A stretch of DNA of 64,000 nucleotides from Desulfobacterales bacterium (lineage in GTDB: Bacteria; Desulfobacterota; Desulfobacteria; Desulfobacterales; UBA5616). The stretch's first letter is position 1. Each line of letters starts with the position of its first letter. Both the position numbers and the translations under genes were made by a program. The DNA lies in assembly GCA_046483495.1 (NCBI GenBank), contig JAWODC010000049.1, positions 31,019 through 95,018 on the forward strand. The letters run 5' to 3'. Below the pieces are notes generated by a model. The model worked only from the letters and a program-made list of their open reading frames with translations. It was not told the origin of the DNA and did not search any database. Of this stretch, positions 29,958 to 47,646 are shown in pieces.

Positions 29958-30106
29958 ATCCCGTTTCGTCTCGCCCGTCCCGCTTCGTGTGCCCAAACCG
30001 CTCCGAACTTCAAGATAAAAGGGGATTGTTGACATGATAAATCACCGCTAGGCCCTTGATTAAGCCGGATTCGGTCTTACCTCTTTAAAAAAAGGAGGTG
30101 TGTATC

Positions 30107-31156
30107 ATGAATCACGTCATCGTACTGCTGATTATGTCCATGCTGGGAATTATCGCCTTTAGTTCATGTGCGTCGGCCGATGTAAAAACGAAAACGGCCA
30201 CGTTTGCGGGCGGTTGCTTCTGGTGTATGGAAAAACCCTTTGAAAAACTCGATGGTGTTGTCTCGGTGGTTTCCGGATATACGGGGGGAAAAACGGAAAG
30301 CCCCACTTACGAAGAGGTTTCATCAGGTTCGACCGGGCATGCGGAAGCCGTTCAAATCATATATGATCCTTCTCGAATCAGTTATGGTAAGCTGCTGGAA
30401 GTATTCTGGCGTCAAATCGATCCCACGGATGCCGGCGGCCAGTTCGCCGACCGCGGAACCCAGTACCGTTCTGAGATTTTTTACCATGATGATGAGCAGC
30501 GAAGGCTTGCTGAAACATCCAAACAGGTTCTTTCGGAAAGCGGGCGTTTCGACAAGCCTATCGTAACGAACATCACCCCGGCCGGGCCTTTTTACAAAGC
30601 CGAGGGTTACCATCAGGAGTATTACAAACATCATCCGGTTCGCTACCGGACGTACCGGTCCCATTCCGGAAGGGAATCCTTTTTGGAGAAAGCCTGGAAT
30701 AATGATGAGACAATCTTGAGCGAAACCGCATCGAAATCAAACCTGAAGCAAAGGTTAACGCCGATGCAGTACCGGGTAACGCAGGAAAACGGCACCGAAC
30801 CCCCGTTTGACAATGCTTATTGGGACAATAAAAAAGAGGGTATTTACGTGGACATCGTGTCCAATGAGCCCCTGTTCAGTTCCACGGACAAGTTTGAATC
30901 CGGTACGGGATGGCCGAGTTTCACCAAGCCCTTGGAGCCCGAAAATATTCTAGAAAAAGAGGATCGGTTCCTCTTTACCGTCCGGACGGAAGTGCGCAGC
31001 AAAAAGGGAGATTCCCATCTGGGGCACGTCTTCGACGACGGCCCTCCCCCCACCGGCCTGCGATACTGCATCAACTCGGCAGCCCTTCGCTTCATTCCGA
31101 AAAACGATTTGGAAAAAGAAGGATTCGGCCGGTATAAAACGCTTTTCAACGACTAA
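30107..31156 (+). CDS. msrAB: bifunctional peptide-methionine sulfoxide reductase MsrA/MsrB with signal peptide
   Basis: AGGAGG upstream of ATG 30107. Signal-like [24 protein letters not shown]. MsrA box [11 protein letters not shown]. MsrB GWPSF...[10 protein letters not shown]...RYCINS. Confidence 0.9.
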
Positions 31157-35916: not shown

Positions 35917-36564
35917 TTGCGGCCCAAATGGTTTTTAGCATTGGCTTTTTTTTGGATCCTCGGCATGGCGGATACGGTCTACCTGACCTATCACCATTAC
36001 CGAGTCAATATTCTCATGCCGGCTGGAAGCAGTTTTTGTGCCGTGAACGAAGTTATCGACTGTGACAAAGCCGCCACAAGCTTTGGGTCGATGTTTATGG
36101 GATTCCCCGTCGCCACTTGGGGCATGTTTGCTTTCCTTTTTTTAGTGTTTTTTATGGCCGTGGAACGATTGCTGTACTGGGAAATTCAAAAAGCGCTCTA
36201 CGGTTTTCTTCTTTTTATCCTTTATACTATGGCGCTGTTTTCCATCGTCGAGGCGTTTATTTCATTTTTCATTCTCAACGTGGTCTGCATCATGTGTGTT
36301 TTCCTCTATATCATTATCATCCTGATGGTGGTTGCCTGCAAACGGGCTTTAGCAGTGAGCCATCTTGAATTTCTGATACTGCTGCGGGATCTTTTTTTCA
36401 GTTCCCTATTTCGCACACTGTTAAGAAAGGGGACTTCTGTTGCCATTATCGCCCTTGTCTTTTCCGGTCTTATCGCCATTGGACTCGACGGTAAGTTCCG
36501 GGAAACATTTTACTACCAGCGCGTGGATATCATGCTCTCGGAGCCGAGGCCGGAGGGTGATTGA
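35917..36564 (+). CDS. vitamin K epoxide reductase (VKOR) family membrane protein
   Basis: Loop cysteine pair C-x7-C (SFCAVNEVIDC) and TM CxxC (VVCIMCVF), the same spacing as VKORC1 C43/C51 and C132/C135. Four or five TM helices. TTG start, uncertain. Confidence 0.7.
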   Translation: MRPKWFLALAFFWILGMADTVYLTYHHYRVNILMPAGSSFCAVNEVIDCDKAATSFGSMFMGFPVATWGMFAFLFLVFFMAVERLLYWEIQKALYGFLLFILYTMALFSIVEAFISFFILNVVCIMCVFLYIIIILMVVACKRALAVSHLEFLILLRDLFFSSLFRTLLRKGTSVAIIALVFSGLIAIGLDGKFRETFYYQRVDIMLSEPRPEGD

Positions 36565-36581
36565 AAACATATAACCGGTGC

Positions 36582-37520
36582 TCAAGTCATCATATGTTTC
36601 AATGAATCGATGTTTAGAATTCCTCCCCTCTCAGGTTGCACCTGCAGCGAAATGGCGCCGACAGGGCAGGTGGTTTCACAGACACCGCATCCCATGCATG
36701 TATTGACATCGATCCGGACTATTTCATTTTTCTCGTCCATTTCAATGGCATTGAACTGACAGCGCGGGACACATTCCCCACACCCGATACAGCCTTCCCC
36801 AACTGTAGCGATATATCCGGACGGGGCGATATGGGAGTAGGAAATGGCGCCGCTTGTGAACAGGTTCTGGATTTTGATGCCGCCGCAGCAGCAGCTGCAG
36901 CAATTGCAAATGGCAAAAAACCGGTTTCCCATATCTTTTTTGAAGTAGGCGTTGTGAACAAACCCCCTGTTATGACAGTCTTCGAGAATGTGGACGGCCT
37001 CCTCCCGTTCGATTTTTCTAAATCTCGGGTTATGGTCCGCAATGAATGAGGCATGGGGATCGCCGATAAACATACAGGCTTCCATGGGGTATTCCATGCA
37101 GGGGCACTCAGCCTGAGCCAACCGGCAGGGGCAGGTTCCGACCGCAATTGCATCATTGCTTTTGAGCAGGACATTTCTGGCGAGCTTAAACGGCACAATG
37201 GTTTCCGGCACCTCGATATGGAGGTCGGTTTGTAATGATACCAGCTTTTTTGCATCCTCCAATTGAACAATTTTGGCATGATAAATATCCGTCTCCGAGT
37301 TTCCTCCTGCCTGGGCGATGATGTTCAGGTTTGCCTGGAGCATATCGTCTACGGCGGGGTCTACTTTTTCGATCTCCGGATTGACCGGAAGCCCCATGCT
37401 CTCCATGACCTTGGCCTCAAATTGGTGAAGAAACTTCATGTACAGAAAGGCATTATAGAAATCGTTTTTGCTTTCCTTTTTGTAGAAATCGAACAGCGCT
37501 TTTGTCGTTTCATCCATCAA
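36582..37520 (-). CDS. Fe-S protein: cysteine-rich N-terminal/middle region plus C-terminal 2x[4Fe-4S] ferredoxin domain
   Basis: CPCRLAQAECPCMEYPMEAC, the poly-Cys run ICNCCSCCCGG, then CIGCGECVPRC and CMGCGVCETTCP. Confidence 0.7.
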   Translation of the reverse strand: MMDETTKALFDFYKKESKNDFYNAFLYMKFLHQFEAKVMESMGLPVNPEIEKVDPAVDDMLQANLNIIAQAGGNSETDIYHAKIVQLEDAKKLVSLQTDLHIEVPETIVPFKLARNVLLKSNDAIAVGTCPCRLAQAECPCMEYPMEACMFIGDPHASFIADHNPRFRKIEREEAVHILEDCHNRGFVHNAYFKKDMGNRFFAICNCCSCCCGGIKIQNLFTSGAISYSHIAPSGYIATVGEGCIGCGECVPRCQFNAIEMDEKNEIVRIDVNTCMGCGVCETTCPVGAISLQVQPERGGILNIDSLKHMMT

Positions 37521-37548
37521 GCCCCCTTTTTTTGGCGGTTATTGGAAA

Positions 37549-37582
37549 AGAAGACCATCGATCAAGCGGTCGATGGTCTTCT
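37549..37582 (-). promoter_or_regulatory. intercistronic 13-bp perfect hairpin (attenuator or mRNA-stability element)
   Basis: AGAAGACCATCGA (37549..37561) / TCGATGGTCTTCT (37570..37582) with an 8-nt loop. On the minus strand only TTT follows, so it is not a canonical terminator. Confidence 0.45.
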
Positions 37583-37622
37583 CGGTTCTTGTCGCTTGGG
37601 AAAAGGTTTGCATATTTGCCTT

Positions 37623-38099
37623 TCATGTTTCGTCTTTAATCTCGTATCTGAAATCGCAATGATCCGCACCCTCCATGATGGTTTGGGTACGGCTGAATCG
37701 GATATTGGGATTGAACCCTTCTGCGATGGAGGCATCCCGTCCGCATGAGAGAATGTACCCGAACTCCTCCATACCCAAACTGCGGTACATTTCCGCGAAT
37801 TTGCATCGTGTGAAGTTAACCGCGATTTTATCGGGAGCGGCTTCGACGATTTCGTATTTCAGGGCGCCCCCTTGACCGGCCACGGCAAGGGCCTTTTGGA
37901 AATCTTCGAGGCCGTCCCCTTCGGCGATGCTTCTAAGCATTTCACCCGCCTCGATCGACAGCGCCCGAATCACCTCCCCGGCAACTTCGAGAGCGGGCTT
38001 ACGGCCGAATTTTTGCATAAAGGCCCTGATCAGCGGAACGGCTATACGGGCCTCGATTTCACGCCTGGTAATCAAAGGCACACTGTTGATGTCCTGCAT
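37623..38099 (-). CDS. L-2-amino-thiazoline-4-carboxylic acid (ATC) hydrolase family protein
   Basis: FTRCKFAEMYRSLGMEEFGYILSCGRDASIAEGFNPNIRFSRTQTIMEGADHCDFRYE matches the family hallmark pattern. GGAGGA upstream. Confidence 0.65.
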   Translation of the reverse strand: MQDINSVPLITRREIEARIAVPLIRAFMQKFGRKPALEVAGEVIRALSIEAGEMLRSIAEGDGLEDFQKALAVAGQGGALKYEIVEAAPDKIAVNFTRCKFAEMYRSLGMEEFGYILSCGRDASIAEGFNPNIRFSRTQTIMEGADHCDFRYEIKDET

Positions 38100-38115
38100 C
38101 CTTTTTCCTCCGTTT

Positions 38116-38472
38116 TTAATATTCCTCTTTGTTTCGGACGGCCTTATTCCCGGTAACCACCAAATCTTTCAATACGTTGTTCAGGTCCAGGGGTTCCAGC
38201 GTGATGTCCTTTTCGACCCGGGTTTGACAGAAGAGGCCCGGACGGCCGTTTATTCTGCCGGAGCATTTCCCGCAGACGCCCAAGGTACAGGCCGCATGGT
38301 CGTAATACGCCAACGTGCCGTCCTGATTGTGATAAATGTAATCGAGTACATCAAGGGCACTCATCCCCTCTTGGTAGGGCACTTCATAGGTGCGGTAGTA
38401 GGGCGCCTTGTCCCTTATCGGATCGAACCTGAATACCGTTGCCTGAATTGTATGTTCACCCATAGCGACCAC
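38116..38472 (-). CDS. [2Fe-2S] ferredoxin-like protein equal to the N-terminal domain only of SdhB/FrdB
   Basis: ACTLGVCGKCSGRINGRPGLFC is exactly Cx4Cx2Cx11C. FRFDPIRDKAPYYRTYEVPYQEGMSALDVLDYI resembles the SdhB N-terminus. The probable true start is ATG 38463. The 4Fe-4S/3Fe-4S half is absent. Confidence 0.7.
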   Translation of the reverse strand: MVAMGEHTIQATVFRFDPIRDKAPYYRTYEVPYQEGMSALDVLDYIYHNQDGTLAYYDHAACTLGVCGKCSGRINGRPGLFCQTRVEKDITLEPLDLNNVLKDLVVTGNKAVRNKEEY

Positions 38473-38557
38473 CGTTCGGTTGCCGGCAAGACCCGGCAGT
38501 GTTCAGCCCTCATAATGAAAGCGATGCTTCAGCTACAAGGTCCTGATGATTTTCAAA

Positions 38558-40327
38558 TCAATGCTTGCCGCCGGTATCGGAATGGGAAAGCATCATTTCC
38601 TTAATGAAATCCATGTAAGCAGTAACGCCTTTCGGCGGGGTCATGCTTGTTACGGCCACCGGAACATGGTGCACCTCGGAGCCGCTTCGCGTGCGTTTTG
38701 CGATACTTTCCTTGAGCCAATTGTCATTGTCGGTATGCGGATAATCTTCTCGAAAATGCACACCCCGGCTTTCCGTTCGCAAAAGGGCGCTTTCTGCGGC
38801 TACCGCAAGAAGTTCGACCATGTTTTCCAGTTCAAGGGCGTCGATCCATTCTTTATTGTATCGCCTGTTTTCAGTTGTAACGGCGATATGTGGTATCGCG
38901 TCTTTTTTCAGGCGATTCAAAAAACGTATGAAAGTGATCAGCTCTTCCCGAACCCGGATGGGGCCCAAATAGGTGTGTGCGGCAGTTTGAACGGATCCCC
39001 TGATTTCCTGTGGCGAAACGCCCTTCACCCGACTCAGGGGAGCAGCGGCCTTTTCTTCCAGGGCGGCAAAGGCATCATCTGCGGGCCTGCCGGTATCGGA
39101 TTTGCCGGTATAGGCTGCGGCATTTTCTCCGGCATCCGCACCGTGAACCAGCATTTCAGTAATCGCTGCAAACACACGATTGGCGCCGAATGCACCCAGC
39201 GTACATTCTCCGGCTGCAAAAAGTCCGGGCAAGGCAGTTTCAAAATGTTCGTTAACCTTGATGCCGCCTTCGAAATATTCGACGGCCGGACCGACCTCGA
39301 CCGGCTCGTTGTCCCTTAATTTTCGGCCCCATTCAGAAAGGTCCAGTGCCTTATACTTCCATTTTGGAAAAATCATGGAGGCAACGAATTCGATATCCTC
39401 CCATGGTGCATCGCCCCGGCTGTAATGAATGCCGCCGTTGGCGAATCCTCTTCCTGCTCGAATCTCTTTTGCCGTGGCATGAGAGATGAAGCTTTTGTTC
39501 CATTCGGTTGACGCTCCGATCTTGACGACAACGGGATCGTTAGATTTTAAAAATTCATCCCCGTCACAATTGGTTAATCGGACATCCACCAGCATGCTCA
39601 GGATATAGGGAGCGATGCTGCCCGCCCAGATGGGAGGATTCAGAAAAACATTGCAGCAAAACGTAATGAATTCCATGTTTCCAAGATCCGCTCCGGCACG
39701 GTGGGCCATCGCAATACCTTCCCCCGACAAATCCCTCATGCCCGTAGTGGGTCGGAACGCTTTATGCCAACCGCCGGTAGCCATAACCACGGCCTTGCAC
39801 CGGAACCGGATAAAATCTCCGGATCGGATATCGATCCCCAACGCCCCTGCGACGGCGCCTTTTGCGGTGACCAGGTCGAATAGAAAAATGTCTTCCAGCA
39901 TTTGGATGCCTAAAGACCGCGCCTTTCTGAGCAGGGCATCCATGATACCCGTGCCGCTGGTGAAAATCATCCGCTCATCGCTCACTTTGATCTGAATTCC
40001 CCATTCGATCAGTTCCTGCAGGCATTGCGGCGCCTTTCGGATATACTGGTCGACGAGCTTCTGGTTGTTCAGAAAACAGCCTTGTGTGACGATGTCATTG
40101 AAAACTTTTTCCGGAGTGTCTTCGGGATCGCCGGCCAACCCGGGAATACGGCTCATGCTCGCGCCGTCCAGCGTGAAATCGGCACCCGCCATCGGAGTCG
40201 CCCCGCATCGGGCAAGAGGGCCCTTGCTCAAGAGCAGCACCTTCATCCCTTTCTCCGCGGCTGCTATAGCGGCCCTGAAACCGGCGCCGCCTCCCCCCAC
40301 CACCAATATATCGGTGTCGATTATCAC
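38558..40327 (-). CDS. FAD-dependent oxidoreductase, succinate dehydrogenase/fumarate reductase flavoprotein-like
   Basis: GTG start. DILVVGGGGAGFRAAIAAAEKG, VMATGGWHKAF and FAAGEC. At the Frd/Sdh MEFVQYHPTG position the ORF reads MEFITFCCNV. Confidence 0.75.
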   Translation of the reverse strand: MIIDTDILVVGGGGAGFRAAIAAAEKGMKVLLLSKGPLARCGATPMAGADFTLDGASMSRIPGLAGDPEDTPEKVFNDIVTQGCFLNNQKLVDQYIRKAPQCLQELIEWGIQIKVSDERMIFTSGTGIMDALLRKARSLGIQMLEDIFLFDLVTAKGAVAGALGIDIRSGDFIRFRCKAVVMATGGWHKAFRPTTGMRDLSGEGIAMAHRAGADLGNMEFITFCCNVFLNPPIWAGSIAPYILSMLVDVRLTNCDGDEFLKSNDPVVVKIGASTEWNKSFISHATAKEIRAGRGFANGGIHYSRGDAPWEDIEFVASMIFPKWKYKALDLSEWGRKLRDNEPVEVGPAVEYFEGGIKVNEHFETALPGLFAAGECTLGAFGANRVFAAITEMLVHGADAGENAAAYTGKSDTGRPADDAFAALEEKAAAPLSRVKGVSPQEIRGSVQTAAHTYLGPIRVREELITFIRFLNRLKKDAIPHIAVTTENRRYNKEWIDALELENMVELLAVAAESALLRTESRGVHFREDYPHTDNDNWLKESIAKRTRSGSEVHHVPVAVTSMTPPKGVTAYMDFIKEMMLSHSDTGGKH

Positions 40328-40451: not shown

Positions 40452-40488
40452 AAAAAAATCGGCATATCGAACCCAATGGGTTCGATAT
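40452..40488 (-). terminator. rho-independent terminator after the sulfite-reductase-like gene
   Basis: Minus strand: ATATCGAACC-CATTG-GGTTCGATAT (10-bp stem, palindrome 40464..40488), then GCCGA and TTTTTTT (40458..40452). Confidence 0.6.
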
Positions 40489-41150
40489 CAAAGAACCGCC
40501 GCTTTCAGTTCATCGATTCCGATTCGTTCCATGAACCGGGCGGTCCGTTCTCTTTTTTTGCCGTTGGCTGCATAGTGTTCCAGGCATTTTCGGGTGAGAT
40601 CGATAACGGCTTCCTTGTCGAGGTCCTCGGCCACCACATCACCGATGCGTGGCCGGCCGCCGCTGTTGCCGCCGAAAATCAGTGTCCAGCCATTCTTCTT
40701 GCCCAGCACCCCGACATCGCGCACATAACTTTCTCCGCAGCACATGGGACACCCTGAAACTCCGAATTTGACCTTTGCAGGAAGCGCCATGTTCTGAAAG
40801 AGATTTTCGAGCTCCATTCCCAGCCCCAGAGAATCCTGCACGCCCAGCCGGCACACCGCGGTTCCCGGGCACGCCTGTGCATAGTGAACGCATAGCTCTG
40901 TGGCTCTGCCTACATCCATGCCGAGATCTTTCCAAACCGATTTCAGTTCGGATTCCTTGAGTCCCACCAGGGCGATGCGCTGACCGGACGTGATCTTCAC
41001 CACCGGTATACCGTATTTCTTGACGACGCTTGCTATGGATTCGAGCACTTGAGGGTTAAGTATCCCCAGCGGCGTTCTGGGGACGATGGCATAGGTTTCC
41101 TTATCCCTCTGCAGAATTGCTCCATCAAGATGTTCCGGATGTTCCGCCAT
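40488..41150 (-). CDS. small nitrite/sulfite reductase-like siroheme-[4Fe-4S] protein (low-molecular-weight assimilatory-type sulfite reductase-like)
   Basis: 220 aa. GAILQRDKETYAIVPRTPLG, ITSGQRIALVGL, and cluster/siroheme cysteines Cx5C (ACPGTAVC) and Cx3C (GCPMCC). The size matches the ~218-aa Desulfovibrio alSir class. Confidence 0.65.
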   Translation of the reverse strand: MAEHPEHLDGAILQRDKETYAIVPRTPLGILNPQVLESIASVVKKYGIPVVKITSGQRIALVGLKESELKSVWKDLGMDVGRATELCVHYAQACPGTAVCRLGVQDSLGLGMELENLFQNMALPAKVKFGVSGCPMCCGESYVRDVGVLGKKNGWTLIFGGNSGGRPRIGDVVAEDLDKEAVIDLTRKCLEHYAANGKKRERTARFMERIGIDELKAAVL

Positions 41151-41605: not shown

Positions 41606-42199
41606 TCATGTACTGGCATACCCTAAGGAACCGATCAGATCATCGGCTTCACTCAAGTCGGGAATATCGGTTAAATCGGGATCCTTACGCACGTCGCTCC
41701 AAAGCAGATCGACTGTCCATGCAGCCGTCAACCCCACGACTGTGGGGCACAGCGTTGAATGTCCGCCCCTGTTTTCGTATGTTTCTATGTGTTCTGGATT
41801 CGTCCAGTCCATATCGAATCCAAGATGGGTTTTTAAAATGTCGCCGCATTTCAGGCTGCCGAGTTTGTACTTGAATTTTTCCTGAAGGGTATAGGCGAGA
41901 ATGGTTGCCTTGATGTCCCATTCTTTGCCGTCCATGAAATAATCGTAAGGCCTTCCAAGAAAATAACCGATGACGGCGCACGCGGCGGAAAATGAGCCGC
42001 ATGTGTTCGAGGATGCGCCCCCGCCGGCTTCCAGGGGATGGACAGCCCTGAAAAAGGATTCATTTTTGATGCCGAAGACATCTGCAAGCGCATTGTAGGT
42101 GCACTGGGAACAGGAATGCCTGTTCTTTTCGCCTTCGAACCCGATCCTGAACGCCCTTTTCATGGCCTCTTCTTTGGTATACCGGTTGATTCGCTCCAT
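41606..42199 (-). CDS. C_GCAxxG_C_C family putative redox-active protein
   Basis: NRHSCSQCTYNALADVFG, LEAGGGASSNTCGSFSAACAVIGYFLG, LKCGDIL and HSTLCPTVVG follow the family cysteine pattern. GAAGGA upstream. Confidence 0.55.
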   Translation of the reverse strand: MERINRYTKEEAMKRAFRIGFEGEKNRHSCSQCTYNALADVFGIKNESFFRAVHPLEAGGGASSNTCGSFSAACAVIGYFLGRPYDYFMDGKEWDIKATILAYTLQEKFKYKLGSLKCGDILKTHLGFDMDWTNPEHIETYENRGGHSTLCPTVVGLTAAWTVDLLWSDVRKDPDLTDIPDLSEADDLIGSLGYAST

Positions 42200-42289: not shown

Positions 42290-44353
42290 CTACAATGCCT
42301 CGACAGCGCCGATATCAGCGGATGAGTTCACCGGTCGTGAAACGCCAAGCTGATCGATCGGCTGCTGGGAAACACTGATGTCTTCTTCCCAAATGGAAAA
42401 GAAAATGTCATTGTTTTCGGGCAACAAACCCGACGATGGAAATAGATCCCTCCAGGCGCCGTCGCCGAGCAGTTCCGGACCCATTCCCAATATGTGCTCG
42501 TCCTCGAGGGCTGCATCGAGCTGATGCCAGAATTCGATATACGGATAATTTGCAAGCTCCTGCGTCCAGGTAATCGCCGGACCAAACCACTGAACATCGT
42601 CAAGCGTTAGCATCGGTTCGCCTGAAGGGTTCGTATAGGGCTGGGTTCCCACAGTTTCGCCGTCGGCATCGACGGTCTGTAAAAAGCTTTCAAAATGGGT
42701 TCTGAAATCGGCGGCAAAACCGGGAAGAGTGAAACAGCTCTCGATCCTGTCGAGTACAATGGATAGAAAGTTATCGATGCCGCCGAGCCGGATGTCGTAC
42801 TCGGCAAGGGTCTTGTTAATGATGTATGGTGAAGCAGGGGCCTGGTCGATGGCCCCGGCACCGGGTTGATAATACAAAATCGCGTAATCCGATGCGTCCA
42901 CCCCGGCGGAAAAGATCTCATTGGACCGGACAATTCCAGAGTCCAGATCGAGGACCTCGGCAATTTCCACGCCGCTTCCATCACCGCTTTTTGGAAAATG
43001 CCTGCGGCACAGGGATTCCCAACCCGGCTCACCCACCGGGACAAGGATCTGGCTGAAGTCGAGTGCGCCGATGCGGTTGTAACCCATGCTTTTAAAGTGC
43101 ATTAGGGATCCTGTAAAAATATCCTGAGCATATGCATCTCCGCCGATCTCGGAAACGGTGTTCCCGACGACCAATGAGTGGCCGATGGTGATCGTTTCGA
43201 CGGCGTGAGCATTTCCGATGGTTGCGGCAATGCCGCCGGCCAGATTGGGCTTGCTCAAATCATCGGTACGGGGCACGCCGTACGTTTCGTTCTGAACAAT
43301 CGTGCAGTTCTGAATGGACAAATTGCCGTTGGATATGTAAACGCCGCCGCCCCGCCAATATCCCATGGCCAAAAGAAAATCCGGCAGGCCGGGCGCCGGC
43401 TCGGCGAGGTTTTGGGCGATGGTGCTGTTCGTCAGTTGCAATGTTTTCCGATGACCGATGCCGCCGCCGTCCGAATAAACCCCGCCGCCGTAAGTGAACA
43501 ACGCACGGATGCGGTTTCCCGTGATCGAGCAACGGTCGATAACCGAAAACGTTTCCAGGTTTTCGGCCCCCCCGACAGAAAAAACCCCGCCCCCGGCTGC
43601 TCCTCCGCCTGAAACGGAATTTCCGCTGATGATGCAATTCTCCAGATCGACAATGTCGGCATAGAGCCCGCCGCCAAAGGCACCCCGATCTCTGGACGAA
43701 TCAAAATCGCCCTTGCAGGAGTTGCCGTAAATGCGGCAGTTCACCAGGCGTGCCGCTCCCCATACGGCAACACCGCCGCCGCGGGCCAGCGTCCAGGGCT
43801 GATTTTCATTTTCCGCCGATATGTCCTCTGCTACGCTTTTGCCCCCCGTAATCGACACATTTGCCATACAGAGGTCGCCATAAACAGCCAGCACACGGGC
43901 CGGATTGTCCTCGCCGCCGTTCCATGAAAGGGTGATGCCGGACGGCAGATCCGATGCATCGATGATGACGTTTTTTTGAGTATAAAGTGCGGACTTGCCG
44001 TAGTCCCTTTCGAAATAGCCCTCCAGGTAAGAGACCGGTCCGCTCGGCGTATCCCGCATGCCCATGACTTCACCTTTCAGCACCGAATGTTCTTCCCCGA
44101 CGATGGACAGTTCGATAACGCCGCCGTCCAGGTATTCCTCGAAACGTATGGGTTGATTTTCTTTTGCTGTATCGAGTGCAGAACGAAAGGTGATAATGCC
44201 TGAAGGCGGTTCGGCGCTGTCGTCGAGACTGTTGACAAAAATGGGATCAGGAGCGGCGGCCTTTCGGTCGCTTCCGCTATCTCCGAAACATCCCAAAAAC
44301 AATAGTACCGACAAAAAAACCATTGAGAAAATCGATCGTTTCATTTTCATCAT
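42290..44353 (-). CDS. secreted, probably lipid-anchored right-handed beta-helix repeat protein (choice-of-anchor-Q-like)
   Basis: Signal MMKMKRSIFSMVFLSVLLFLGC. Repeated G-rich beta-helix turns (GGGVAVWGAARLVNCRIYGNS, GGGLYADIVDLENCIISGNS, GGGVYSDGGG, GGGVYISNGNLSIQNCTIVQN). Confidence 0.65.
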   Translation of the reverse strand: MMKMKRSIFSMVFLSVLLFLGCFGDSGSDRKAAAPDPIFVNSLDDSAEPPSGIITFRSALDTAKENQPIRFEEYLDGGVIELSIVGEEHSVLKGEVMGMRDTPSGPVSYLEGYFERDYGKSALYTQKNVIIDASDLPSGITLSWNGGEDNPARVLAVYGDLCMANVSITGGKSVAEDISAENENQPWTLARGGGVAVWGAARLVNCRIYGNSCKGDFDSSRDRGAFGGGLYADIVDLENCIISGNSVSGGGAAGGGVFSVGGAENLETFSVIDRCSITGNRIRALFTYGGGVYSDGGGIGHRKTLQLTNSTIAQNLAEPAPGLPDFLLAMGYWRGGGVYISNGNLSIQNCTIVQNETYGVPRTDDLSKPNLAGGIAATIGNAHAVETITIGHSLVVGNTVSEIGGDAYAQDIFTGSLMHFKSMGYNRIGALDFSQILVPVGEPGWESLCRRHFPKSGDGSGVEIAEVLDLDSGIVRSNEIFSAGVDASDYAILYYQPGAGAIDQAPASPYIINKTLAEYDIRLGGIDNFLSIVLDRIESCFTLPGFAADFRTHFESFLQTVDADGETVGTQPYTNPSGEPMLTLDDVQWFGPAITWTQELANYPYIEFWHQLDAALEDEHILGMGPELLGDGAWRDLFPSSGLLPENNDIFFSIWEEDISVSQQPIDQLGVSRPVNSSADIGAVEAL

Positions 44354-44637: not shown

Positions 44638-45281
44638 CGGCGACCGATATAAAAACCCGACGCCTGAAAAGGGCCGCTTTTCAGATTTTCATCCTGGTTA
44701 TGCTCTCAAGTGTTTGTATCGGGGGCTATGCCGGCGTCCTTCATGTACTGAACCTGCCGTTTCGGCAGGTAAACGATAGCCTGCATCGAGAGGATGCCGC
44801 TGTCGATCTCGATATTCTCATTCCCGGCGGCACCTATATCGACGAAAACATGACCATCCGCGAGGTGATAAAGCTGCGGTTTGCCCGTCGCTTGCCGGCA
44901 GCCGAAAGAATTGCCGGACACCTGGTATCTCTGATTCCTGAAACCCTCCGTCACATGTTCAATGCCATCCTGTTTTTTTTCTGGTCCTTCGTTTACATGA
45001 CGTTCATTCGCGTATTCACCTTTCTTCGGTATAGTCGGGCCTTGGGCGCGAGCCTGGCCCTTGGAGGGTTCACCTATTTTTTTATGCCGGATTTCTCCCC
45101 GGGGCGACTGGATGATGCGGTTTTCATGACGGCGCCGCTTGGGGTCATCGGCGCTCCCGTTTTTTTCGTCCGGTGGAGGAGGAGAAAAACCAATAAGGCA
45201 AAAGCGTCTGAATCATTGGCTTTCACCAACCACGAAACCACCCGATGTGCCTTACGAAAGGAAAACCCCAATGAACACTGA
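44628..45281 (+). CDS. hypothetical membrane protein
   Basis: Hydrophobic segments AAFQIFILVMLSSVCIGGYAGVL, FNAILFFFWSFVYMTFIRVFTFL, ALGASLALGGFTYFF and VFMTAPLGVIGAPVFFV. Overlaps the next gene by 11 nt. No clear SD. Confidence 0.4.
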   Translation: MQPTATDIKTRRLKRAAFQIFILVMLSSVCIGGYAGVLHVLNLPFRQVNDSLHREDAAVDLDILIPGGTYIDENMTIREVIKLRFARRLPAAERIAGHLVSLIPETLRHMFNAILFFFWSFVYMTFIRVFTFLRYSRALGASLALGGFTYFFMPDFSPGRLDDAVFMTAPLGVIGAPVFFVRWRRRKTNKAKASESLAFTNHETTRCALRKENPNEH

Positions 45282-47646
45282 AAACATTGACTTCATTCAA
45301 TCTGAAATCGGGAAACACCCTGTGGATGCCGCCGGTTCACCGGTGGGTGTCGTCCGTATGGATCCCGAAAAATCCTATGCCGGCGTGGGGGATCTGCTGC
45401 GGTCGTATATTACGCAAAATGATGCCGAAGCCTGGGAGAAAATTTGTAAAAAAATCGATTACACCTTTGCAAATCTGGATCTTGCCCTATCCGCCCTGGC
45501 TGAGGCAACCGGATTTATCGGCGATGTCACCAGCCGGGTGGATTGTGGGCAGAAACTGCTGTTTAAGCCGAACCTGGTCAATCCGAGCAATATCGATCCC
45601 CAGACCAATGAACCGGGATTAGGCAGTACCGCCTGTACGGAATGGCCGTTTATGGCCGCCTTGATGCGCTGGTTTTACGAGAAATGCGGAATTTCCTACT
45701 ACCGGATGTGCATCGGGGATGCCGCCACCGCCATGTCTGCCGTTGCCGGCCAGTATACGGCCATAAACAATCGCAGGATAACGACCGAGGCGGTTATTGA
45801 GGGAAAGTCCGAAGACTTTCACGGGGGGTGGGGATTTTATTTCGTTCGAAAATATCTGAGCGACAGGTGCAGCAAAGAAAGCGGCGGCAACCCCATGAAT
45901 GGATTCGAAGAGAGCGTTTCAGGGACTTACATTCCGCCGGGAAAAGCCGCCGATAAGCTGATGGTGTATGATCTAAACCGCATTTTCGATGATCCGTCGA
46001 AGGGCCGGCGCATCGGCGTCAAGGACGGCGTGAACTATGATTCCATTATGCTCCACAAGGTGATCGTCGGCGGCGATCCTGAAGACGCAAACGATCGTGA
46101 GGATTATCCCGGCTGCATCCTTGTGAATGTCCCGAAGTTCAAGGTTCATGTCATTGCCCTGTTTACAAACGTCATCAAGAACCTCGGCATTGGTCTGTAT
46201 CCCATGCAATACGCAAGCCGGGGAGCATTCAAGTGGGATTACAGCGCGCCCCACCGGCCTGTCCCCGGAATGAAGGCCGGTATACCTCACCAGGTGTGGG
46301 TGTCGGAATTGGACGAGCATACGCTGCTGCCCAAGGTGGACGACATGGGGAATGCTGTTCTTCAGAAAACCGGCGGCATAACGGCGACCATGATCGACAT
46401 CATCAGGGCGGTAAAGGACCAGCAGGTTTACATGATTCATGTCGTGGATGCGGTTGAAGGCATCAATATCGACCATCAGGGCATTGGTGCAGGGACAAAA
46501 GAGCCGGAAGGCATGGTGTTTGCAGGGATCGATCCGGTCGCCACCGACCTGCTGAGTGCTCGGTATATGTTCGGTAATACGCCGCTTGAAGAATCGCTGT
46601 TATCCGGAGTGGCGGACGGATACGGCGGGCTGTTTCCCCAATCGGTCATTATCCCTGTTGTGGAGGGAAGCACTATCGTTTCGAAAAATGGGTATGACTG
46701 TCCCATTTCCAGGGATATTTGTTTTAAAAGGTCCAAAGAAAGGGGTTTGGGCGATACCGACTACCATGTTATCGGACGAGACGGCATCACGGATAAACCC
46801 CTGGTTTCGGTGCAGGGCCATTTGGGTATTGATGATGACGGCCGGTTTTCGAACATCATCACGAACACCCTCTATTTTGACATGTTCAAAATGCCCTGGG
46901 ATCTGCAGAAAACGGCTCTGGCGTACTTTGAAGCCATTGACCGACTTTCAGGTTCCGGATTGAAACAGGATTTTCTCTCCGCCTTCGATGAAGATAAAAA
47001 CGGCATCGTAACTTACGAGGAGATGGGGAAAAAAGGCGAATGGACGTTTCTATTGCATGCGGGGGGCGAAATGCTTGCCGGCATGGCCGGACTTCTCGAA
47101 TCCCTTAGAAATTCGTTCAAATGGACAATTGCCCGAATGAAAGTATCGGATGCTGCATACAATGTAAACGGCAGTGATTTTATGAGGGCATTCGGCTACG
47201 GGACAACCTGCACGGTCGCCTTTCAAATGTCGATGGCGGAAGAGGAATCTCCGGATCCGTTTATTCCGGGACTGACGTGGGGCAAGGGCAAGTGGCCGGG
47301 ATTCGAACTGGCCAAATATGCATCCATTGGTTTTGCTCTCTTCGGCCGGGAATTTCCCGGTGTGGTTTCCCAACCAAGCCTTTACTACAGCGTCTTGCGG
47401 TATGCGGATCTAACGCAGAACCAAGGAAAATTTCTGGGAGGTGAAAGGCTGCTCGCCGATCCCGAGGATATTCATCGGTATGTTGCATCCGCCGGAAAAG
47501 ACCATGCGATGCTTGATTTTACCCTGTATGTACCTGAAGGATACGATATGATGTCGGGAATCCGCCTGCCGAATGTGACATCCACAACGGATAGTGCCAT
47601 TATTTTTACGGCGAGTTTCAACGGGGGAAGAGAAATCTGGGCATGA
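45271..47646 (+). CDS. large DUF362 domain protein with ~300-aa C-terminal extension carrying an EF-hand-type calcium-binding loop
   Basis: ORF 45139..47646 trimmed to ATG 45271. DUF362 blocks: GQKLLFKPNLVNP, VPKFKVHVIALFTNVIKNLGIGLYP, IHVVDAVEGI, GIDPVATDLLSARYMFG. EF loop DEDKNGIVTYEE at 46987..47022. Confidence 0.65.
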   Translation: MNTENIDFIQSEIGKHPVDAAGSPVGVVRMDPEKSYAGVGDLLRSYITQNDAEAWEKICKKIDYTFANLDLALSALAEATGFIGDVTSRVDCGQKLLFKPNLVNPSNIDPQTNEPGLGSTACTEWPFMAALMRWFYEKCGISYYRMCIGDAATAMSAVAGQYTAINNRRITTEAVIEGKSEDFHGGWGFYFVRKYLSDRCSKESGGNPMNGFEESVSGTYIPPGKAADKLMVYDLNRIFDDPSKGRRIGVKDGVNYDSIMLHKVIVGGDPEDANDREDYPGCILVNVPKFKVHVIALFTNVIKNLGIGLYPMQYASRGAFKWDYSAPHRPVPGMKAGIPHQVWVSELDEHTLLPKVDDMGNAVLQKTGGITATMIDIIRAVKDQQVYMIHVVDAVEGINIDHQGIGAGTKEPEGMVFAGIDPVATDLLSARYMFGNTPLEESLLSGVADGYGGLFPQSVIIPVVEGSTIVSKNGYDCPISRDICFKRSKERGLGDTDYHVIGRDGITDKPLVSVQGHLGIDDDGRFSNIITNTLYFDMFKMPWDLQKTALAYFEAIDRLSGSGLKQDFLSAFDEDKNGIVTYEEMGKKGEWTFLLHAGGEMLAGMAGLLESLRNSFKWTIARMKVSDAAYNVNGSDFMRAFGYGTTCTVAFQMSMAEEESPDPFIPGLTWGKGKWPGFELAKYASIGFALFGREFPGVVSQPSLYYSVLRYADLTQNQGKFLGGERLLADPEDIHRYVASAGKDHAMLDFTLYVPEGYDMMSGIRLPNVTSTTDSAIIFTASFNGGREIWA

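Follow-up and report, generated by a model that had tools for sequence, protein, structure and literature searches.

The stretch considered here, a window of 64,000 nucleotides from a Desulfobacterales bacterium (contig JAWODC010000049.1 of assembly GCA_046483495.1), carries four minus-strand genes between positions 36582 and 40327. They encode a flavoprotein resembling SdhA and FrdA of succinate dehydrogenase and fumarate reductase, a small [2Fe-2S] protein, a member of the ATC_hydrolase family, and a cysteine-rich iron-sulfur (Fe-S) protein. An earlier account of this DNA, made from the letters alone and referred to here as the sequence-only reading, had described four consecutive open reading frames (ORFs), and all of them were confirmed at the coordinates it gave. 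The SdhA/FrdA-superfamily FAD subunit (38558..40327, minus strand, 589 aa) was assigned from Pfam and NCBIfam scans, alignments to FrdA and Sdh1 from the PDB, and column counts in 184 sequences; the [2Fe-2S] subunit, consisting of the N-terminal Fer2_3 domain of SdhB/FrdB alone (38116..38472, minus strand, 118 aa), from Pfam and a locus survey; and the ATC_hydrolase-family (PF14196) subunit with its V4R/Bet3-like fold (37623..38099, minus strand, 158 aa), from Pfam, AlphaFold2 (AF2), Foldseek, and conservation. The fourth gene, for the poly-Cys Fe-S protein (36582..37520, minus strand, 311-312 aa), was characterized through Pfam (C-terminal part), an alignment (A3), and the same survey. Between the atc gene and the poly-Cys gene lies a stem-loop (37549..37582, minus strand) with a perfect stem of 15 bp and, on the coding strand, TTTT after it; this element is terminator- or attenuator-like. 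A second, terminator-like hairpin, 3' of the upstream NIR_SIR gene (40464..40488, minus strand), forms the 5' boundary of the flavoprotein transcription unit, and the three genes for the flavoprotein, the Fer2 protein, and the ATC protein are thus flanked by hairpins on both sides in the window.

None of the four proteins contains a transmembrane-like segment. No Sdh/Frd anchor gene is adjacent in the window or recurrent among 73 related loci, and the membrane protein nearest to the four-gene set is encoded by a convergent VKOR gene. The flavoprotein/Fer2/ATC enzyme is therefore predicted to be soluble, in agreement with the sequence-only reading, which had proposed a soluble complex without a membrane anchor.

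In Pfam, the flavoprotein shows the SdhA/FrdA architecture, with FAD_binding_2 (E 4e-44) followed by Succ_DH_flav_C (E 5e-27). Both N-terminal and active-site motifs previously pointed out were located: the GxGxxG dinucleotide-binding motif reads GGGGAG at residues 11-16, and MEFITFCCNV, standing in place of the MEFVQYHPTG of FrdA, occupies residues 218-227. Residue correspondences were taken from alignments to Escherichia coli FrdA and M. smegmatis Sdh1 (PDB) and from a family alignment (A1) together with 184 family sequences. His232, Pro233, and Thr234 of E. coli FrdA correspond to Cys224, Cys225, and Asn226 of the window protein, the catalytic Arg287 to Lys278, and His355 to Glu350, while Arg390 is kept as Arg384. 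Of the five dicarboxylate-binding or catalytic residues compared, four (His232, Thr234, Arg287, and His355) are thus replaced, and only Arg390 is retained. The histidine that carries covalent FAD in FrdA aligns with Cys41-Gly42, meaning that there is no covalent-FAD histidine. These replacements are a property of the family: Cys225, Asn226, Lys278, Glu350, and Arg384 are essentially invariant in the 184 sequences, and Cys224 is present in 166 of them.

The curated protein families give a similar picture. Among curated NCBIfam models, the flavoprotein scores best with TfrA, reaching 256 bits where the cut-off is 718, and with sdhA_frdA_Gneg it scores 248 against 567; among the 25 NCBIfam models in the matches listed, the flavoprotein reached the curated cut-off of none of the Sdh, Frd, Tfr, NadB, or Apr models. 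The possibility that it is a characterized enzyme, such as a thiol:fumarate reductase or AprA, had been named as the finding that would overturn the sequence-only reading, and no curated model passed. Because the substrate-site residues are replaced and no curated cut-off is reached, the flavoprotein is predicted not to be a fumarate reductase, and its dicarboxylate site appears to have been rebuilt. The earlier argument that the altered motif speaks against fumarate or succinate is thereby strengthened by the conservation of the replacements across the family.

More than 1,500 database proteins belong to this flavoprotein family at E<=1e-20, the top 120 of them at 62-100% identity. Their names in public records are inconsistent and include 'FAD-binding protein', 'succinate dehydrogenase/fumarate reductase flavoprotein subunit', 'fumarate reductase iron-sulfur subunit', and 'L-2-amino-thiazoline-4-carboxylic acid hydrolase'. 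The succinate-dehydrogenase and fumarate-reductase names are unsupported, and the ATC-hydrolase name follows a valid PF14196 match, with the activity itself putative. Residue 84, a Cys in the window protein, is Phe, Trp, or Tyr in many of the 184 family members. In Sporomusa acidovorans DSM 3132 (NZ_CP155571.1), a flavoprotein homologue that is otherwise intact, with 589 codons and 65% identity to the window protein, contains a single in-frame TGA (L012:10247-10249) aligned to Cys84, and a Selenomonadales metagenome-assembled genome (MAG; locus L072) has Cys at the same position. Examined as a possible selenocysteine insertion sequence, the hairpin that follows the Sporomusa UGA is weak, at -11.5 kcal/mol (z = -1.5), and its apical loop lacks a G. 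The codon may form a selenocysteine/cysteine pair with its counterparts, in which case residue 84 would be redox-catalytic; otherwise it is a nonsense mutation.

The 118-aa protein matches Fer2_3 only (E 2e-26), and its four cysteines, at positions 62, 67, 70, and 82, form an exact Cx4Cx2Cx11C motif. It covers positions 1-103 of the 222-position dhsB (SdhB/FrdB) model, and against the TfrB model it scores 72 with a cut-off of 385, covering only the first ~100 of 488 positions. The sequence-only reading had taken it for the [2Fe-2S] N-domain of SdhB/FrdB alone, which these searches confirm; a protein of 118 aa with four cysteines does not amount to the SdhB-type polypeptide with its three clusters ([2Fe-2S], [4Fe-4S], and [3Fe-4S]). 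In 14 loci, for example in D. alkenivorans AK-01, Fer2_3 and ATC are fused as one ~280-aa polypeptide, in which the ATC-like domain comes right after Fer2_3, where the chain of SdhB would continue with its [4Fe-4S]/[3Fe-4S] domain. These fusions provide strong evidence that the Fer2 and ATC parts are physically associated. In D. alkenivorans, the flavoprotein and Fer2-ATC genes have the accessions ACL06122 and ACL06123, and the fusion is, judging from accession order, presumably Dalk_4444. That the separate genes of the window are themselves a frameshifted fusion was ruled out, since the ATG of atc is preceded by a Shine-Dalgarno sequence of its own, the ribosome-binding site GGAGG, and the split is present in other loci too.

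The 158-aa protein matches PF14196 (ATC_hydrolase) over the whole profile (1-145 of 145) at 112 bits, against a gathering cut-off of 28.1, and its earlier placement in this family was thus correct. Its AF2 model (53 homologues, pLDDT 91) found its best PDB matches, by Foldseek, in the V4R domains of MopR, PoxR, and DmpR (TM 0.55-0.61, probability 1.0, E down to 2e-5), with Bet3/TRAPP and H-NOX domains next; a sequence search against the PDB returned spurious designed-repeat matches only. As modeled, the subunit is predicted to have a V4R fold. Cys99, Asp122, and Cys148 are invariant in the ATC partners of the flavoprotein family (69/69), and Cys119 is invariant in the ATC subfamily of the window protein and missing or unaligned in ~40% of the partners. 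The four residues constitute a putative metal site, which with its three cysteines and one carboxylate may be analogous to the zinc ligands Cys151/Glu172/Cys177/Cys185 of DmpR (PMC7264223). The likeness to DmpR, MopR, and PoxR is one of fold (TM ~0.6) and not of sequence, at 10-17% identity, and whereas theirs are sensor domains of transcription activators, that of the window is an enzyme subunit. Some homologues carry the JGI label 'predicted hydrocarbon binding protein', and one locus (L039:8567-9604) encodes a tandem double ATC_hydrolase protein of 345 aa just upstream of the flavoprotein.

Conservation of the gene set was surveyed with one genome per species, giving 79 loci; together with two earlier-fetched loci, 73 hold a full member of the flavoprotein family. 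They come from Desulfobacterota, Sporomusa/Selenomonadales (Negativicutes), Spirochaetota, Leptospirales, Chloroflexota, Acidobacteriota, Bipolaricaulota, Nitrospinota, and Poribacteria, and partial flavoprotein matches were also seen in Thermotogae and Thermoplasmata contigs. Linkage was counted in the 57 loci whose flanks both extend for 2.5 kb or more; their ORFs were searched with the window proteins and with hidden Markov models (HMMs) derived from them. A Fer2_3-only gene lies near the flavoprotein in 56 of the 57, an ATC_hydrolase-family gene in 50, and both in 49, an arrangement far beyond chance. The partnership with an ATC-hydrolase-like protein is real and, given the 14 fusions, tighter than had been guessed. 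The sequence-only reading had staked itself on the co-conservation of all four genes; the first three hold together, and the poly-Cys gene, with a homologue near the flavoprotein in 5/57 loci, does not travel with them. Judged by this linkage, the conserved core is a trio of SdhA-like flavoprotein, 2Fe-2S-only SdhB N-domain protein, and ATC_hydrolase-family protein. Nothing on this gene set was found in the searched literature library. In two loci (L059:8911-11799 and L065:8381-11587), the ORF of a DAO-family FAD oxidoreductase runs into that of the flavoprotein; the joined ORFs are probably a frameshift artefact of long-read MAGs, with a DAO-type gene directly upstream there.

Comparison with characterized relatives sharpens this delimitation. 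With complex II (SdhAB, FrdAB), the trio shares the two flavoprotein domains, the [2Fe-2S] N-domain with its Cx4Cx2Cx11C motif, and the equivalent of FrdA Arg390; unlike complex II, it has no [4Fe-4S]/[3Fe-4S] domain, anchor, or covalent-FAD histidine, its partner is V4R-like, and His232/Thr234/Arg287/His355 of FrdA are Cys/Asn/Lys/Glu in the window protein. TfrAB of methanogens is likewise a soluble Sdh-like enzyme without an anchor, and TfrA is the top curated model, but the window protein scores only about one third of its cut-off and TfrB combines 2Fe-2S, 4Fe-4S, and CCG domains in 488 aa. NadB, also soluble and from the same superfamily, dehydrogenates an amino-acid C-N bond, the type of chemistry proposed below for the trio; however, NadB lacks an Fe-S partner and keeps the dicarboxylate His/Arg set, and the window protein falls below the NadB cut-offs. 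In its workings the trio resembles the soluble head piece of complex II, but by what defines SdhA/FrdA, SdhB, TfrAB, and NadB, it falls outside all of them, and it appears to represent an uncharacterized, widespread branch of the Sdh/Frd/NadB superfamily.

Genes within 7 kb of the flavoprotein were clustered and representatives annotated. Recurring neighbors are SDH_alpha-family proteins (22 loci), MarR regulators (13 loci), PepQ/DoeA-like M24 proteins resembling Xaa-Pro-peptidase/ectoine hydrolase (11 loci), GntR regulators (11 loci), M20 amidohydrolases of the TIGR01891 type (10 loci), TetR regulators (8 loci), and a second type of M20 protein (6 loci), along with Asp/Glu-type racemases, class I-IV aminotransferases, and Liv, Opp, and TRAP transporters, peptide and amino-acid ABC transporters included. 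The theme of these neighborhoods is amino-acid-derivative catabolism. A further clade is represented by a Candidatus Abyssubacteria MAG (contig of GCA_054680575.1; locus L086), where the genes run racemase<, ATC>flavoprotein>Fer2>class-IV (D-amino-acid) aminotransferase>acyl-CoA ligase; this order is a hint that part of the family uses substrates of the D-amino-acid type.

The flavoprotein signature of the window, Cys41/Cys84/Cys102/Cys177/Cys224/Cys225/Asn226, also marks its closest clade, which mostly has the operon MarR>flavoprotein>Fer2-ATC>SDH_alpha (CyuA-type)>M20 with gaps of 21-80 bp. One SDH_alpha protein (L005:12712-14025) can be aligned over its full length with 9fsl, the structure of an L-cysteine desulfidase (E 2e-43), and retains the three [4Fe-4S]-ligand cysteines as well as Cys23, Glu25, Arg223, Asn239, and Lys339. 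The cluster cysteines and these five residues have been described for MmCyuA (PMC12647591). By residue conservation, the SDH_alpha neighbor is thus predicted to be a CyuA-type L-cysteine desulfidase; in D. alkenivorans AK-01, a CyuA-like gene is on record as Dalk_4447. The M20 neighbor, read as an N-acyl-amino-acid amidohydrolase, passes the TIGR01891 cut-off. The M24 proteins, racemases, aminotransferases, and peptide or amino-acid ABC transporters are additions found in other clades. The presence of both genes in the operons of the closest relatives lends independent support to the early guess of a possibly organosulfur pathway, and would suggest catabolism of thiazolidine- or thiazoline-carboxylates to cysteine.

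From these observations, a graded interpretation can be assembled. The architecture is very probably that of a soluble three-component flavo-iron-sulfur oxidoreductase with a non-dicarboxylate site and a V4R-like domain at the position of the SdhB cluster domain. As to function, the flavoprotein would dehydrogenate an amino-acid-derived monocarboxylate at a C-N (or C-C) bond, the substrate being presumably a cyclic or N-substituted cysteine derivative, and electrons would leave the flavin through the [2Fe-2S] cluster. We regard this best explanation as a whole, architecture and function together, as about evenly poised between right and wrong. For the clade that includes the window protein, the best-fitting but still tentative substrate class is the thiazolidine-4-carboxylates, thioproline-type adducts of cysteine and aldehydes. 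In such a route, thiazolidine-4-carboxylate would be oxidized to 2-thiazoline-4-carboxylate, the ATC-hydrolase-like subunit would open the ring to give an N-acyl-cysteine, the M20 amidohydrolase of the relatives' operons would deacylate it, and the CyuA-type desulfidase would cleave the cysteine to pyruvate, ammonium, and sulfide. More speculatively still, the trio may form a class of its own among soluble complex-II-like enzymes, with a V4R-type domain for metal and ligand binding replacing the SdhB cluster domain. Such a class would serve an unrecognized anaerobic route that oxidizes thiazolidine-4-carboxylates and opens their ring, so that cysteine is regenerated or broken down, with active-site Cys224-Cys225 and Cys84, possibly a selenocysteine in Sporomusa, taking part.

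Two known routes offer partial precedents. In Pseudomonas, the AtcB/AtcC route, source of the Pfam name ATC_hydrolase, converts L-2-amino-thiazoline-4-carboxylate to L-cysteine, and 2-thiazoline-4-carboxylate is the des-amino analogue of the AtcB substrate. The resemblance lies in the passing PF14196 score, in an M20 protein that follows in relatives as AtcC follows AtcB, and in cysteine as the implied product; the difference is that AtcB is not known to associate with, or be fused to, any redox enzyme, whereas the window domain is obligately paired with a flavoprotein and a [2Fe-2S] domain, and its hydrolase activity is putative. The second precedent is aerobic thioproline detoxification in E. 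coli, where the steps are PepP (M24), flavin oxidation by PutA to 2,3-thiazoline-4-carboxylate, and then hydrolysis to cysteine and formate (bioRxiv 10.1101/2020.03.19.981027). The operons of the relatives likewise imply an M24 peptidase, a flavin dehydrogenase, ring-opening hydrolysis, deformylation, and cysteine. Their flavoenzyme, however, is of an unrelated family (Sdh-like versus PutA), their hosts are anaerobic, and they have a dedicated hydrolase subunit and the CyuA desulfidase.

Several observations weigh against a thiazolidine-directed enzyme. The substrate assignment is drawn only from guilt by association, and HMMs from the related loci found no homologue of CyuA, M20, M24, racemase, or the regulators in the 64-kb window. 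Neighborhoods vary by clade, some containing acyl-CoA ligases, Amidohydro_2, or URO-D-like genes, and the alternation of Cys with Phe, Trp, or Tyr at position 84 indicates that substrate specificity probably varies within the family. The four-ligand Cys3-Asp site on the modeled V4R fold has the look of a structural or redox-active site more than of a hydrolytic one, and the fused ATC domain, if placed like the SdhB C-domain, would be far from the flavin. No conserved external electron acceptor was found among the related loci. Finally, hydrolase activity is not known to have been reported for any PF14196 member other than AtcB.

The main competing explanation, which we consider possible but doubtful, assigns the V4R/ATC-like domain to electron transfer: the domain would replace the [4Fe-4S]/[3Fe-4S] domain as the electron exit, its Cys3-Asp site would bind iron, an Fe-S cluster, or a tetrapyrrole, and the substrate would be some other amino-acid derivative. 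The position of the fused domain, following Fer2_3 exactly where SdhB has its cluster domain, fits this view, as do the invariance of Cys99, Asp122, and Cys148, the H-NOX heme domains also returned by Foldseek, and the lack of another conserved electron acceptor at the related loci. It sits less easily with Cys119 being missing or unaligned in ~40% of partners, with a Pfam family named for a thiazoline hydrolase, and with a CyuA/M20 context that suits a hydrolase step; moreover, the presumably homologous site in DmpR holds zinc (PMC7264223).

The sequence-only reading itself had proposed that all four proteins form one complex, with the 2Fe-2S protein and the poly-Cys protein sharing the Fe-S chain of SdhB between them, a model best judged against the properties of the latter. 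Translation from TTG gives 312 aa, and the likelier start, an ATG at 37517, gives 311 aa and matches public record P0241. The motifs described earlier, CNCCSCCC and two CxxCxxCxxxC, are present, along with CPC...CPC. The C-terminal 2x[4Fe-4S] domain qualifies as a ferredoxin (Fer4, 45 bits against a cut-off of 21), with cysteines 244/247/250/254 and 275/278/281/285 invariant in alignment A3, save Cys244 (>=90%). Conserved N-domain cysteines are Cys130, Cys132, Cys141, Cys149, Cys205, Cys207, Cys208, and Cys210-212, all invariant in A3 except Cys149 (>=90%). Residues 1-235 (window 36816-37520, minus strand) have no Pfam or NCBIfam match and, in an AF2 model of pLDDT 95, no fold match in the PDB, where only the C-terminal ferredoxin part was matched. 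With 723 representative clusters among 1.84 billion proteins and a conserved core of about residues 77-220, the N-domain is probably an undescribed metal- or cluster-binding domain. The family comprises proteins of ~305-320 aa (644 matches).

In favor of a split SdhB chain, the genes are on the same strand and adjacent in the window, the poly-Cys protein offers two [4Fe-4S] motifs and extra cysteines, and a related protein occurs within 3.5 kb of the flavoprotein in the five loci mentioned. Yet five among 57 well-flanked loci is little linkage; the ferredoxin part resembles polyferredoxin/RnfB/HdrA inserts, and the protein shows no similarity to the SdhB C-domain; and the 15-bp hairpin with its T-run separates atc from the poly-Cys gene. 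Homologues with 75-76% identity adjoin short-chain dehydrogenases/reductases (SDRs), CoA-transferases, enoyl-CoA hydratases, and other Fe-S proteins but no Sdh-like flavoprotein, and more distant ones adjoin phytoene-desaturase-like flavoproteins, other oxidoreductases, or unrelated genes. The low linkage and these unrelated contexts rule out the poly-Cys protein as a co-conserved fourth subunit. As an evolutionary claim, the split is largely refuted, and as a whole the four-protein model is improbable: the cysteine motifs stand, and the role as part of the Fe-S subunit does not. The poly-Cys protein is best read as a general Fe-S electron carrier outside the conserved core, which may in this genome act as electron acceptor or donor for the trio.

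Equally unlikely is a third alternative, in which the V4R-like subunit has a sensory or regulatory role and gates the flavoenzyme according to a small-molecule ligand, as V4R domains do in DmpR, MopR, and PoxR. The best structural matches are indeed effector-binding domains, and the hydrocarbon-binding label on some homologues points the same way, but an obligate 1:1 association and fusion to a cluster domain would be unusual for a regulator, and the operons already have dedicated MarR, TetR, or GntR regulators. That the trio is simply a soluble fumarate reductase or succinate dehydrogenase, or a TfrAB-like thiol:fumarate reductase, is very improbable, for although TfrA, SdhA, and FrdA are the best named matches, the scores lie far under their cut-offs, the replaced substrate-site residues are conserved as such in the family, and the partner is without the 4Fe-4S and CCG domains of TfrB.

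Other genes surround the locus in the window. Directly upstream on the same strand is a 220-aa stand-alone NIR_SIR protein (40488-41150, minus strand), which resembles the NirB C-terminus or a small sulfite/nitrite reductase, and further upstream on that strand is a C_GCAxxG_C_C putative redox protein (41606-42199, minus strand); neither gene recurs next to the flavoprotein in any of the 73 related loci. An MsrA-MsrB fusion with a hydrophobic N-terminal leader (30098-31156, plus strand) and the VKOR-family membrane thiol oxidoreductase (35917-36564, plus strand) are among several thiol/sulfur redox genes loosely clustered near the locus, for which conserved linkage was not seen. Also upstream are a right-handed beta-helix protein of 687 aa, whose start resembles a signal peptide (42290-44353, minus strand), and an 835-aa DUF362-containing protein (45139-47646, plus strand); both are apparently unrelated to the trio. 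An acyl-CoA ligase in the window was ruled out as an orthologous neighbor, at 27-37% identity to the ligases near related flavoproteins. A MenB/BadI-like gene has 71% identity to one near the flavoprotein of locus L007, a similarity that probably reflects synteny between close genomes.

These results bear on how the family is annotated and on what its scaffold can do. Metabolic reconstructions that count genes of this family as fumarate reductase are probably wrong. A large Sdh/Frd-type branch that reaches across many phyla, and in which the active site is rebuilt and something other than a cluster domain stands in for the SdhB C-terminal domain, would widen the known roles of the scaffold, and its lone [2Fe-2S] cluster raises the question of the route by which electrons exit. 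If the cysteine-adduct hypothesis is true, the trio would give its hosts an anaerobic means to detoxify or feed on thioproline-type compounds, and organosulfur compounds would count as a further source of sulfide in sediments and guts.

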